Of a stretch of 18,748 bases of DNA, positions 9,001-15,000 are shown piece after piece. Each line of letters opens with the position of its first letter. Positions within the stretch are counted from its first letter, which is position 1. The stretch is taken from IMG/VR virus record IMGVR_UViG_2703718816_000016, positions 1-18,748 of that record. One strand, written 5' to 3'. The position numbers were made by a program. The DNA comes from a virus (lineage: Duplodnaviria > Heunggongvirae > Uroviricota > Caudoviricetes).

Positions 9001-12000
9001 CGTGGTGAGGCTGATAACAAGGGGTCGATGTGGTGGCCGACGAGTGAGGCAAGTGAAGCGGTCCCAAAAACCACAGCAGAGATGCTGATTAACGCGATTG
9101 AACAGCATGGTCCTCAGTCGGCTGACGAACTGGCGTTAATGTTCGGGATTACCTCCCACCGGGCGAATTCATCACTGGCGATGGCAATCAGCAAAGGTCG
9201 TCTGATTCGCGTTAATCAGGACGGTAAATATCGTTACTGCATACCGGGCGATAATTTACCGACAGAGCCGAAAGCTGCATCGGTAACGGAAACCGATGGT
9301 AAAGCCTTTCCTCAGCCAGCAGGTGTTGCGTTACCAGTCCGGGAAGCGGAAACACAGGAAGAAATTAAAACTGAAAGTGTGGCGGTCACAGTGCAGTCAC
9401 GGCCGTCGTTCACCAGAAAGCATCCGGATAGTCTGATTTTACCATCGCTGCATGTGGCTAACCGCGAACTGCGCCGGGCAAAAGGTCAGGTTCAGAAGTG
9501 GGAGCGAGTCTGTGCTGCGCTGCGTGAGCTGAACAAGCACCAGGATATTGTTCGACAGATTACTGATTCATCCTGTTGTGTTGCATCAGAAAAGTGATTG
9601 CAGGGGACGCTGATGGCAAGAGTATTTACACCAGAAGAGCGGGAAAAAATTAAGGGGCAGGTTGTTGAACTCGTACGCCAGAGCGGTCGCGAGACGTTAC
9701 GGCAACTGGAAGCTAAAACAGGTGCAACAAGATATCTGGTGAGCGTTCTCGCCAGAGAGCTGGTTGCCAGTGGTGATGTATACAACTCTGGCTACGGGTT
9801 ATTTCCGTCTGAACAGGCTCGTAAAGACTGGCAAAACGACCGCAAAAAACTTTCAAGGGAAAAGGCGAAGAAACCGGCTGTGGTTGATCCGGACCTTATC
9901 TGGTCATTACCAGACGGAGAAATACGCCGCTACGACAGGCGCCTGAACATAATCTGTCGCGAGTGCCGGAATAGTGAAGTTATGCAGCGAGTGCTGGCGT
10001 TTTATCAGGGGGTGGGGTCAGGAGGTGGTGCTGTGAGTGAAATTAGCTATCAGGCTTCAATTGCCGCTGGCATTCGCATCAAAGGAGAGGAGCATGGAAA
10101 TAAAACCAGAAGATGAGTTAAGTAATATTGTTTTATTTCCGGTAAAAGAGGATGACCCACGTAATCAGGTTAATTTTCTTTATGAGCCATCGGAAAGACC
10201 ATATTGTCATCACGCCTCTGTCCGGGTTGACGAAAAAGAGCGTCAGGTCCGCTGTAAAATCTGCGGTGCAGTTGTGGAGCCATTTGACTGGATGCTCTCT
10301 GTGGCGAAAAGAGAAACCAGACTGGCAGATGATGTAAGGCTCTTGCGCCAGGAGGAACGGGAAAGGCGGAGAAATGTAGAAAAGCTAATTCAGATTGAGC
10401 GTAACGCGAAAGCGCGGATACGCAGGGCGGCAAAATCAAGAACTGAATAATTAAATTTAGCACTGTTAAAAATTTAATCCTTAACCGGAGGGATTTCTGC
10501 ACCCTCAGAACATCAGGAGGCCGTTCGAAATGGCGGTAGTGAAATGCGAAAATTCAAAATAATTATTGAAACGGGAATAGCTGGTGGAGATTTTGAGGAT
10601 GTATTCGAAGTAGATGATGACGCAACACCTGATGAAATTCATGACGAAGCAAAAGAAATTTTCTTTAACTACTGCAATTACTCATACCACGAAATAAAAG
10701 ATGAAGAGGAAGGACAAAATGGCTGATTTTGGTTCAACTAAATATAACGCCAGTTTTGAAGAATGGCATGAACTGTTAATGGATTATGCAGAGTTACGCG
10801 GTGGAAGTGCCGCTGATGCTGAAGCATAGCGTGATGATTATGAAGCAGGGAAAACTCCGGTCGAAGCATATTGTGATGAGTGGGGCGATGAATGAGCGAG
10901 ATTAATTATCAGGAAGGGCATGAAAAGGCAGGGCAGGCAAAACCAGTGGCATGGCGATATCGCTACGTGAAAAAAGGCGTTACAGACTTTCAGGGGAAGC
11001 AGTGGGCTGGTGACTGGAAATATGTCCAGACAAAAGAAGATTGTAACGACAGACCGAACTATGAAATTCAGGCGTTATTCACGGCCCCGCCAGCCCCGGT
11101 GACATCAGAAGGACTAGTTAAAGCCGTGTGCTTTTATGAACAGGTAAAGCGTGAGAATCCACCAGTCGAAACAGGTGCATGGAAAGATGCTGTTGACTGG
11201 GTACTCAAAGAGGCTTGCCAGGCTGTAAGCATTAGCAACAAAGGGGGGTGAGTAATGCGTGTGGCATGTATCAGTTTGTTACCGTACCCGACTCGTTTTT
11301 GGGCTTCTGCGCTAATTGCAAAGCCGCGTGTCCTGATGGATGACAGCATCATCCCGACACCAAAGCGCCGCCATACCGGTATTGCAGCGGCACGACGAGC
11401 AGCAAAGAAACGCAGGAGAGCAAAACGATGAAAAACCGTAAAGCAAAAATTCTGTTAGCTCGCAGAAACGGTGTTGGTGTCTGGCGGTGGGTGAGGATTA
11501 GTAACAGACGGGTGAGGTTGACGGGGTGTTGCGGTGTTATGGGGCACAGTTGTTGCAAAAAGCCCAGCGCGGCGCAAAACCGCTGGAAAAACCACTGTTA
11601 TCTGCGCACTAAAGGAGAGTGAGATGGCGTTAACACACCGCGAACTCTGTCAGATTGCGTACAAGTTCCTTAAGCGCAACGGGTTCAAGGTTTGCTTTCA
11701 TGACCGCTTTATAGCTGTAACCAGTACCGGAGAACAGCCAGATGCTATGGGATTCAGAAATTCAGCATCATGCCTGATAGAGGCGAAGTGTTCTCGTGCT
11801 GACTTGTTGGCAGATAGAAAAAAGCGTTTCCGTAAAAATCCCTCTCTTGGCATGGGCGACTGGAGATTCTTTATTAGTGAGCCGGGAATTATTTCAATTG
11901 AGGATTTACCACCTGGCTGGGGATTACTTCACGTTGTTAACGGAAGAGTACGGAAAGTACATGGGTGGCCCAAGGGTAATTGCTGTTGGGGTAATCCTGA

Positions 12001-15000
12001 CGATAAGCCATTTACTGGAAATAAGCAGGTTGAATGCGATTACATGTTGTCTGCATTAAGGCGCATGGAGTTGAGAGGGCACCTTAATGAAATATATGAC
12101 GGTGTAATTGTTAATAAGAAAGAAGGAAACGCGGCATGACGACTTTTACCAGAGAGCAGTTAATAGCTCACGCAGAGGAGACTATTGAAGCACAGAGACT
12201 GTGCATACCGGGCACAATCGACAATGACATCATCCGCACATATAAGATGGATATTGCTGTTCTGGAAATCGCACTGGCATCGCTGGCAGCAGAGCCAGCC
12301 GGTAAATTGCATGAATACAAACCAGTGGGACATCAGCGTCTGGTCGACGAGTTAACCATGCTGGTAAAGCAGTTAACCTGGCAACTGAGGAAAACGAAGC
12401 CGGACTGTAAATTGCCGGGTAAGGCGATGGACTACCTGAAGCGAAACGGACTGATAAGCGCAGAGGATGTTTTACGATGACCTGGCCTGGGGCATTCACA
12501 ACGGTAGGGATTGCAATGGCGGTGGTGCTGATTGTGTATTCGATTTGTCGCTGGGGATAAAAACGATTTGCGGGGAAAGGATAGTTAAGTAGAATTGCTG
12601 CGGGTGCTTGAGGCTATCTGTCTCAGGCATGAACACCAAAAGGCAGATAGAGAAAAGCCCCAGTTAACATTGCGCGTCCGGCAAGACGCTTAACATTAAT
12701 CTGAGGCCATATCTATGCTCTACACACGTAGGTTAGCCTCTTACGTGCCGAAAGGCAAGGAGAAGCAGGCTATGAAGCAGCAAAAGGCGATGCTAATCGC
12801 CCTGATCGTCATCTGTTTAACCGTCATTGTGACGGCACTGGTAACGAGGAAAGACCTCTGCGAGGTACGAATCCGAACCGGCCAGACGGAGGTCGCTGTC
12901 TTCACAGTCTACGAACCTGAGGAGTAAGAGACCAGGCGGGGGAGAAATCTCCCGCCACCTCTGATGTGTCAGGCATCCTCAACGCACCCGCGCTTAACCC
13001 GCTTCGGCGGGTTTTGTTTTTTCCTGGCATTCTGGTTTACAATTCGCACGTCAGCCTGAACAACTGACACCTGCTGCGCCAGCAGAGAAAACTTATGGCG
13101 CACGATACCAAATTACACAATTCTGATAATTCAGCCATCTTTGCCAGCAGGCACGGGCGGCGTTTTCACGCGTTTAAAACTCGCTGGTTTCAGCACCCCC
13201 CATGCACAGAAAAGCAGGCTGACTGGATAATTCAGGCTTATCGCAGGCGCGGATATGAGGCTTATAAAACCCTCAGTATTGACTACCGGAAATGGATAGT
13301 TTCTGTGAGACTGCCTTATTCAGAGCACCCACCGCGCCCATCCCGCACATACCAGCAACGTATCTGGAGGTAACGTGCGGGTATTACTTCGACCTGTGCT
13401 GGTGCCTGAACTCGGGCTGGTGGTACTTAAGCCAGGCCGTGAATCCATGCCGGTATTTCACAATACCCGTGTGCTGGTGGAGCCTGAACCGAAAAGCATG
13501 CGCGATCTGCCGTCCGGATCTGTTCCCGCTGTTCGCCAGCCGCTGGCGGAGGATAAATCATTACTGCCATTTTTCAGCGATGAGCGGGTGAACCGTGCTG
13601 CAGGTGGTGCTGGCGCACTGTCTGACTGGCTATTACGTCACGTGAAATCCTGCCAGTGGCCACACGGCGATTATCATCACAGCGAAACCGTCATACATCG
13701 TTACGGTACTGGCGCGATGGTGTTGTGCTGGCACTGTGACAACCAGCTGCGTGACCAGACATCAGATTCACTGGAGCAACTTGCTCAGCAGAATCTGGCT
13801 TCCTGGATGATTTACGTCATTCGGCATGCAATGAATGGTGCGCAGGAGCGGGAGTTGTCGCTGGCTGAACTATGCTGGTGGGCGGTTTGTCATCAGGTGG
13901 CTGATGCGCTTCCGGAGTCTGTATTGCGTCGTTCGCTGGGATTACCAGCGGAAAAAATCCGCTCCGTATACCGTGAGAGTGACATCGTACCGGGAGAACA
14001 GACAGCCATCAGCATACTGAAGCAGCGCACAAAAAATATTGCGCTGCCACTTCACGTCCACCAGCAACAAAATCCACCACAGAAAAAAACGGTTGTCAGT
14101 ATCGCCGTTGATCCGGAGTCTCCTGAATCGTTCATGAAGCGGCCTAAACGTCGCCGTTGGGTTAATGAGAAATACATGCGCTGGGTAAAGACACAGCCGT
14201 GTGCGTGTTGTGGTAAGCCAGCTGACGATCCGCATCACCTGATTGGTCATGGTCAGGGGGGAATGGGAACAAAAGCCCACGATATTTTCACGCTACCGCT
14301 GTGTCGGGAGCATCATAACGAGCTTCATGCGGATCCGCTGGCGTTCGAAGAAAAGCATGGTTCTCAGGTTGATTTAATTTTTCGTTTTCTTGATCACGCC
14401 TTTGCAACCGGTGTGCTTGGGTAAAAGGGGGGTATTGATGTGTATAGAGTTTGTTTTGCCTTACCCGCCGACGGTGAATACTTACTGGCGACGTCGTGGC
14501 AGCACATATTTTGTATCAAAAGCCGGGGAGCGTTATCGCCGGGCAGTGGCGTTTATTGTTCGCCAGCAGCAGTTGAAATTAAGCCTGTCCGGACGGCTGG
14601 CAATAAAAATTATTGCAGAGCCACCGGATAAGCGCCGCCGTGACCTGGACAATATTCTGAAAGCACCGCTGGATGCGCTGACGCACGCGGGGTTGTTAAT
14701 GGACGATGAACAGTTTGATGAAATCAATATTGTACGTGGTCAGCCAGTATCTGGTGGACGGCTGGAAATAAGAATTACAGAGGTGGGTGTGCATGAATAA
14801 CCAGTATTTACAGTTTGTTCGTGAGCAACTCATGATTGCCACTGCAGATCTCAGTGGGTCGACAAAAGGCCAGCTGGAAGCCTGGCAGGAAAATGCCCTG
14901 TTCGATACAGGGCGTTACAGACGCAAAAAAATTCGTTACCGCGATGAGGTAACTGGAAAAATGATCACGCGGGATAATCCCCCGATCCAGGGTAAACAAT

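Follow-up and report, generated by a model that had tools for sequence, protein, structure and literature searches.

A predicted MmcB-like phage nuclease and two independently shuffled small genes ahead of hok/sok in a Shiga toxin-type lambdoid prophage

Organisation of the locus

The DNA analysed here (the window, 18,748 nucleotides (nt) of IMG/VR virus record IMGVR_UViG_2703718816_000016) is a Shiga toxin (Stx)-type lambdoid prophage, and this study concerns three overlapping open reading frames (ORFs) on its plus strand. The first, at 11624..12139, encodes a 171-amino acid (aa) protein identified as a predicted MmcB-like PD-(D/E)xK nuclease from its ORF, its conservation, a structural model and profiles. 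It is followed by the gene for a 114-aa helical modular protein at 12136..12480, characterised with PHROGs, alignments and AlphaFold2 (AF2), and by a 27-codon ORF for a probable single-pass membrane peptide at 12477..12560, recognised by conservation and hydropathy. A hok/sok type I toxin-antitoxin locus lies next on the same strand at 12602..13013, identified with Rfam and through the annotation of near-identical loci. The interval holding the three ORFs is a nin-equivalent delayed-early operon, placed between the replication genes and DUF968-RusA-Q.

A preliminary description, made from the sequence alone, had presented the three ORFs as one compact, translationally coupled unit containing a nuclease that it could not assign to the known nin-region nucleases, and had raised the possibility of a defence or exclusion module tied to hok/sok. 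The ORF coordinates were checked, and the three ORFs are present as it described them, with ATGA overlaps at both the 171/114 and the 114/27 junction. The nuclease gene is preceded by a Shine-Dalgarno sequence (AAGGAG, 11612-11617) seven bases ahead of its ATG. A GTG-extended reading of 201 aa was considered and dropped, since the ATG at 11624 has this strong Shine-Dalgarno sequence and marks the onset of family conservation.

Conservation, fold and family placement of the 171-aa protein

The residues E7, P39, D40, E53 and K55, which the preliminary description had read as a restriction-endonuclease-type motif, sit at the positions it gave. Across 26 relatives (59-88% identity), E37, D40, E53 and K55 were invariant, as were H5, C9, R58, D60, D64, K67 and the segments GMGDWRF and PxGWGLL. 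In a wider set of 148 family representatives with 36-80% identity to the window protein, E37, P39, D40, E53, K55, R58, D60, D64, K67 and R70 were each conserved in at least 90%. The motif is not due to chance, since the catalytic residues are conserved in both sets, and E37, D40, E53 and K55 are the candidate catalytic residues. E7 did not survive as part of this motif: position 7 varies among relatives (E, Q, K, S, D, N or H), and the conserved N-terminal residues of the family are H5 and C9. The C-terminal half, which had been described as Cys/Trp-rich, kept only W80, W99, W122 and C138, while C119 and C120 were variable and no metal-cluster pattern was found in this half.

Scans of the three proteins against Pfam, NCBIfam and PADLOC gave nothing meaningful. 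PHROGs placed the 171-aa protein in phrog_9263 and phrog_631, both of unknown function, with a weak match to a "DNA repair protein" phrog. The best AF2 model (predicted local distance difference test, pLDDT, 76; predicted template modelling score, pTM, 0.71) showed an alpha-beta-beta-beta-alpha-beta core, with D40 at the head of beta2, before strand 41-45, and E53-A-K55 in beta3, closing strand 48-54. The preliminary description had held that a structure prediction without a nuclease fold would count against its reading, and the fold that it had proposed is the one seen in this model.

Profile searches against the PDB pointed to a specific relative. A narrow profile of 26 sequences reached 3dnx at E 0.22 with the motif aligned, and the broader 148-sequence profile, which was needed for significance, found the same entry at E 2.7e-5 over ~100 residues, followed by Hjc chains at E 0.17-0.2. 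The entry 3dnx (SPO1766) represents DUF1052 (PF06319, COG5321), which has been catalogued as a PD-(D/E)xK family (PMC3424549) and is named "MmcB-like" in current Pfam. Identity between 3dnx and the window protein is ~24%, and the two also align over a shared motif behind the catalytic lysine, K-x-SR-x-DF-x-x-D-x-K, which reads K55-C-S-R-A-D-L-L-A-D-R-K-K in the window protein and CKSSRADFQADAK in 3dnx; the corresponding SRxD(F/L)xxDxxK motif of the 171-aa protein spans residues 57 to 67. Pfam MmcB-like was matched by 13 of the 148 family representatives at E up to 0.01, one of which (P0413) scored 23.1 bits and was thereby above the gathering threshold of 22 bits. In the viral structure library BFVD, the matches that came after close homologues were phage "MmcB family DNA repair protein" entries, at E 1e-7 to 1e-5.

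The model and the alignments provide both the core fold and the conserved catalytic D...(D/E)-x-K that define PD-(D/E)xK superfamily membership, and nuclease activity is predicted from them. I consider the restriction-endonuclease fold and the MmcB-like family assignment, taken jointly, to be very probable. The protein can be assigned after all, as a divergent phage-borne sister of MmcB-like/DUF1052, and a non-member by Pfam's own threshold. The likeness consists of structural as well as profile similarity to 3dnx, the solved structure of that family, of the PD-(D/E)xK core, the D...E-x-K site followed by SRxDFxxDxK, which can be aligned residue by residue, and a single-domain size of ~150-170 aa. 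The differences lie in distribution and in private motifs: the known MmcB-like family is chromosomal, SOS-regulated and mostly alphaproteobacterial, whereas the window family occurs in the early operons of phages and prophages of Enterobacterales and other Gammaproteobacteria, and H5, C9, GMGDWRF, PxGWGLL and NKQxEC are specific to it.

The appearance of Hjc chains in the same search raises the alternative that the 171-aa protein is an archaeal Hjc-type Holliday-junction resolvase serving phage recombination and packaging, as RusA or NinG do. Both are small single-domain PD-(D/E)xK proteins with a similar spacing of acidic and lysine residues, the gene sits in nin or exo-xis locations beside recombination genes, and 23 of the 148 family representatives had weak Pfam Hjc matches (best E 1.3e-4). 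However, the two matches for which bit scores were seen, 16.9 and 17.7, fall under the Pfam gathering score of 21.1, and the protein does not qualify for Hjc (PF01870) by that score combined with close structural similarity. The acidic residue of alpha1 (E7) is moreover not conserved, the operon already encodes a RusA, and the similarity is weaker than that to MmcB-like proteins, so that this alternative appears improbable. Separation from the classical nin nucleases, which the preliminary description had noted, was borne out: RusA and NinG/DUF968 share the operon position between the replication genes and Q and the presumed task of processing phage DNA, but their folds and families are unrelated to the 171-aa protein, and RusA and DUF968/HNH are separate genes downstream, at 13375-14800.

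Homologues of the nuclease were abundant in Enterobacterales prophages and were all named "hypothetical". An exhaustive profile search returned 3273 clusters at 50% identity (E up to 0.001). The family has no Pfam or NCBIfam model, and neither an experimental study of it nor a functional study of phage MmcB-like proteins was found in the literature searched; the exo-xis modelling paper makes no mention of nucleases. This "hypothetical protein", which is very common in Stx-converting, lambdoid and P1-like phages, can now be given a fold and a nearest characterised relative.

The annotation of the gene also needs correction. RefSeq/PGAP calls the intact 171-codon ORF a "frameshifted" pseudogene that takes in its first 179 nt, in some cases alongside a separate 110-aa coding sequence (CDS); the affected records are loci L001 (12225-12403), L002 (6020-6535) and L117 (3501-3679), corresponding to window 11624-12139. 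This call is an annotation artefact, because the ORF is uninterrupted in these three loci and in all 80 IMG/VR copies.

Several relatives of the 171-aa protein (P0091, P0093, P0104, P0374, P0370, P0292 and P0033) carry the nuclease domain fused to other domains, namely an Ea22-like N-module (in Salmonella, ~245 aa), DUF551, a dATP/dGTP pyrophosphohydrolase or a TniB-like ATPase. Some of these may be read-through of ATGA overlaps, and others real domain fusions.

Co-occurrence of the three ORFs

Occurrence was counted in 5426 complete E. coli genomes. The nuclease gene, at a coverage of at least 80%, was found in 910 genomes (~17%) at 1300 places, 250 of them on plasmids, and the block of the 114-aa gene and the 27-codon ORF in 566, while the probe across the 171→114 junction was at least 80% covered in only 47. 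The junction is thus missing from 95% of the genomes that have the nuclease gene. A megablast of 11400-13100 showed mosaic breaks, with the nuclease block ending ~20 nt into the 114-aa gene (window ~12157), and the nuclease block without the 114-aa gene was seen in Stx phages, in TL-2011b/c, in P1-like phages and in a Yersinia phage. Among 80 IMG/VR contigs with a nuclease gene of at least 99% identity, the 114-aa gene lay downstream in 8 (overlapping in 7, at +182 nt in 1).

Individual strains displayed the same shuffling. In E. coli 6629, the leftward early operon contains the same nuclease gene (98% identical), followed by DUF551, in the interval from an anti-RecBCD gene to xis-int. In strain 7_14_47A, the 114+27 block comes after an HNH endonuclease gene and before a ParDE pair that takes the place of hok. 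Homologues with 43-91% identity were further inspected in 33 species-representative genomes, ranging from Enterobacter to Shewanella, Salinicola and even a Flavobacterium, and in none of the 33 was the 114-aa protein, the 27-aa peptide or hok found nearby. The neighbours in these cross-species loci included Ead/Ea22 (7), DUF551 (4), DNA methylases (4), NinG (2), DUF968 (2), excisionase (2) and Lar (2), as well as NinB, RusA, RdgC and others. A search of 29 species-level loci for a conserved partner brought up recurrent neighbour clusters only of Ea22/DUF551-class modular proteins, none of them homologous to the 114-aa protein.

The homologues sit in tightly packed same-strand operons, and 15 of the 29 species-level loci have an ATGA overlap between the nuclease gene and a downstream ORF. 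Those ORFs are 52 to 868 aa long and mostly unrelated; because unrelated downstream genes share the overlaps, the overlaps reflect the general packing of these operons and not a dedicated complex. These data bear directly on the idea that the three ORFs form a true trio of nuclease, adaptor and membrane anchor, translationally coupled for a fixed ratio. Besides the ATGA overlaps at both junctions, it could draw on the 97-100% identity at which the trio is kept in 29-47 E. coli genomes and on the fusions of family members with Ea22/DUF551-class modules. It has to contend with the rarity of the junction, with the 114+27 block following an HNH endonuclease in other prophages, with the occurrence of the 27-codon ORF after DUF551 genes in O157 genomes and elsewhere, and with the absence of the trio from every cross-species locus and the sharing of ATGA overlaps by unrelated genes. 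I regard it as very improbable.

The 171-aa, 114-aa and 27-codon genes are independently assorting prophage cassettes and not a co-inherited unit, and the nuclease gene is accessory and mobile. The preliminary view of a compact three-ORF unit does not hold at this scale, and the check it had proposed, whether the ORFs travel together across prophages, returned separate cassettes with few genomes holding the junction. More generally, a compact string of translationally coupled ORFs in a nin or exo-xis region calls for co-occurrence data before it is taken to be a functional module.

The 114-aa modular protein

The 114-aa protein matched phrog_660, phrog_924 and phrog_60 in PHROGs, and its relatives were confined to E. 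coli and Shigella prophages. Its layout comprises a variable N-terminal helical hairpin (~1-51), an 'IALASL(E/A)AEP' linker and a conserved C-module (~68-114). At least five unrelated N-terminal helical segments are joined through this linker to the conserved C-module, some with insertions, and either half recurs in DUF551-containing and longer proteins. These alignments show that the N- and C-modules are exchanged at the linker, which marks the site of recombination.

Structure prediction, which the preliminary description had proposed for this protein as well as for the nuclease, yielded an all-helical AF2 model (pLDDT 74.6) in which the N-terminal hairpin is confident and the linker disordered, and thus gave a nuclease core for the 171-aa protein but no recognisable fold for this one. 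A Foldseek search found nothing at E up to 0.001, a profile search of the PDB returned designed coiled coils only, and Pfam gave no match at E up to 1, including to Ead_Ea22 (PF13935) and DUF551 (PF04448).

The domain plan published for Ea22 itself starts with a short N-terminus, continues as a coiled coil and ends in an exchangeable C-terminal domain (PMC10834534). The Ea22/DUF551 proteins of exo-xis regions resemble the 114-aa protein in their short N-terminal segment, helical or coiled-coil part, 'ALASLEAEP'-type linker and exchangeable C-module, and they share its genomic company. They differ in that the 114-aa protein has no Pfam match to either family and its C-module no match to a known fold. 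Judged by architecture and linker, the 114-aa protein can be classed as an Ea22/DUF551-class modular helical protein.

The match to phrog_660 (193 positions) is split: positions 34-143 are matched by an upstream 119-aa ORF (10892-11251) and positions 146-193 by the C-module of the 114-aa protein. This split suggests that a block made up of a 58-aa ORF, a 64-aa ORF (both described below) and the nuclease gene entered one Ea22-class modular gene and separated its two halves.

The 27-codon membrane ORF

The 27-codon ORF is widespread, with 3088 places in 1621 of the 5426 E. coli genomes, almost always over the full 84 nt, and it occurs in 90 phage records including 933W-type Stx phages. The same frame recurs in varied surroundings, with four or more different contexts on its upstream side and four or more on its downstream side, and where the upstream gene has a DUF551-type end the ORF has its own GGAGG ahead of it. 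All 10 DNA variants are exactly 27 codons long, with a ratio of nonsynonymous to synonymous polymorphism (pN/pS) of 0.27-0.57, and substitutions in the membrane segment are mostly among hydrophobic or small residues. The mean Kyte-Doolittle value of residues 6-24 is 2.25 for the window peptide and 1.85-2.28 over the variants. By these criteria the ORF is probably a genuine and widespread gene for a small single-pass membrane protein. PGAP did not annotate it in the RefSeq E. coli records inspected, and it is a candidate for small-protein annotation.

The junction between this ORF and the hok leader (12561-12700) was at least 80% covered in 1049 genomes. One common breakpoint coincides precisely with the ORF's own ATG (query position 38), with DUF551 upstream in O157:H7, and another falls at its stop. 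In its linkage, the 27-codon ORF therefore favours hok over the 114-aa gene, and by a wide margin over the nuclease.

The hok/sok locus and the question of a defence module

The hok/sok locus beside the three ORFs is a canonical type I system. The Rfam sok/hok leader (RF01794) covers 12602-12777 with 116 bits, mok starts at 12715, hok itself is at 12772..12927 (51-aa Hok), and a terminator lies at 12996-13013; near-identical loci annotate hok as Hok/Gef or HokD. The leader match begins 42 nt past the stop of the 27-codon ORF, close to the ~40 nt to the hok promoter given in the preliminary description, but a candidate -35 (TTGCGG, 12568-73), read from the sequence together with a -10 (TAGAAT, 12590-95), lies only ~8 nt past that stop (12560). 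Recombination at the left boundary of hok/sok falls on either the stop or the start codon of the 27-codon ORF, and hok was within 1.8 kb of the nuclease gene in just 4 of 82 E. coli-type loci. The adjacency of the nuclease to hok/sok is a mosaic junction, and hok/sok is a neighbouring cassette that does not belong to the nuclease's unit.

No promoter-like or terminator-like site was seen on the plus strand between 11200 and 12690, so that the nuclease gene has no promoter-like site of its own. Its GC content was slightly low (0.45 vs 0.49 for the window) and gave no useful moron signal.

Under a defence reading, the nuclease would act by itself or together with the products of the other two ORFs in prophage defence, superinfection exclusion or counter-defence, degrading incoming or competitor DNA. 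The gene's accessory character and high mobility among lambdoid and P1-like phages would fit such a role, as would the toxin-antitoxin loci around it in some prophages and the DNA methylases among its neighbours (4 of 116 neighbouring ORFs). However, none of the three proteins matched PADLOC-DB 2.0.0 at E up to 1, no partner gene is conserved, and the gene lies inside an early lytic operon, not where a moron expressed by the lysogen would be placed. The protein, at 171 aa, also has no sensor or specificity domain, and its nearest relative is a repair-type nuclease. No positive evidence for defence or exclusion was found, and a dedicated module of this kind tied to hok/sok, as the preliminary description had suggested, is unlikely given the missing PADLOC match, the missing promoter-like site and the scarcity of hok nearby.

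Proposed role of the nuclease

The 171-aa protein is predicted to be an active Mg2+-dependent DNA endonuclease that would be made early in lytic growth from an early phage transcript, the pR-side operon here and the pL-side operon elsewhere. The Caulobacter enzyme MmcB, a PD-(D/E)xK endonuclease induced by the SOS response, is required for tolerating mitomycin C and cisplatin, and a role in crosslink repair has been proposed for it (PMC9578287, a review). By analogy with that enzyme and with the neighbouring Hjc-type enzymes, the phage nuclease might cut damaged or branched DNA, which could help the phage genome to replicate and recombine in the SOS-damaged host, the setting in which these prophages are induced. 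Such cutting would be the most economical role, and I hold it tentatively, at a little under an even chance. The reading as a whole, in which a phage MmcB-like nuclease of the early operon processes or repairs DNA and its neighbours are independent cassettes, seems moderately probable.

Several points weigh against this reading. Confidence in the AF2 model is moderate, since a pLDDT of 76 was reached by a single model out of five, with the remainder at 54-57, and the window protein itself has no Pfam MmcB-like match even at E up to 1. The substrate and the role in repair or recombination are argued from analogy throughout. The prophage already has RusA and DUF968/HNH, which would make a junction-processing role redundant, and the nuclease gene has the accessory distribution and mobility that anti-defence and exclusion genes often have. 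Family members are fused with, and frequently adjacent to, modules of the Ea22/DUF551 class to which the 114-aa protein belongs, and a looser functional tie of the nuclease to this class may exist.

A broader possibility is that the family represents an unrecognised class of phage early-operon nucleases, acting in crosslink or damage repair during SOS or mitomycin induction of Stx prophages, or in counter-defence or exclusion, possibly with Ea22/DUF551 adaptors, and that the 27-aa peptide modulates Hok/Sok or membrane physiology; in this form the proposal is speculative and its realisation quite doubtful. For the repair nuclease that I favour, the combination of a mitomycin-tolerance nuclease homologue with Stx prophages that are induced by DNA damage (mitomycin C) yields a testable hypothesis, namely that it affects phage yield, and hence toxin output, after induction.

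Upstream and downstream neighbours

The nuclease gene is directly preceded by a plus-strand ORF for a 64-aa Arg/Cys-rich protein (11428..11622, phrog_1380), whose stop lies 1 nt ahead of the nuclease ATG and which falls outside the span covered by the preliminary description. Versions of this ORF (47-100% identity) preceded the nuclease gene in 37 of the 82 E. coli-type loci, making it a frequent but not constant upstream companion. Its counterpart is an annotated CDS in Yersinia phage vB_YpM_39, and the phrog_9263 profile is a fusion of the 64-aa ORF with the nuclease. It is in turn preceded by a 58-aa ORF (11255-11431) that matches phrog_13831. Neither the 64-aa nor the 58-aa ORF was found in the cross-species nuclease loci.

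Further upstream on the same strand are genes for a helix-turn-helix O-like protein, a DnaC/IstB-like protein, DUF1627, DUF977 and DUF7167. Downstream of hok, the closest genome (NZ_AP042583, locus L001 13635-14612) has an extra hypothetical gene and a ParDE pair between hok and a 92-aa ORF, and it also has an IS66 element upstream. None of these is present in the window, where the stretch compared is 12930-13095, so that toxin-antitoxin cassettes have a hotspot here.

The three ORFs are followed by the DUF968/HNH and RusA genes, and after RusA come two more ORFs, one aligning with an annotated antiterminator Q and the other coding for a DNA methyltransferase. Rfam further identified the DicF antisense RNA on the minus strand (4535-4586), three tRNA genes on the plus strand (17142-17388) and the small RNA STnc100, also on the plus strand (17496-17693), the latter two lying beyond Q and the methyltransferase. 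The order from DicF through Q and the methylase to the tRNAs is the same as in the Stx-prophage loci L001 and L002.

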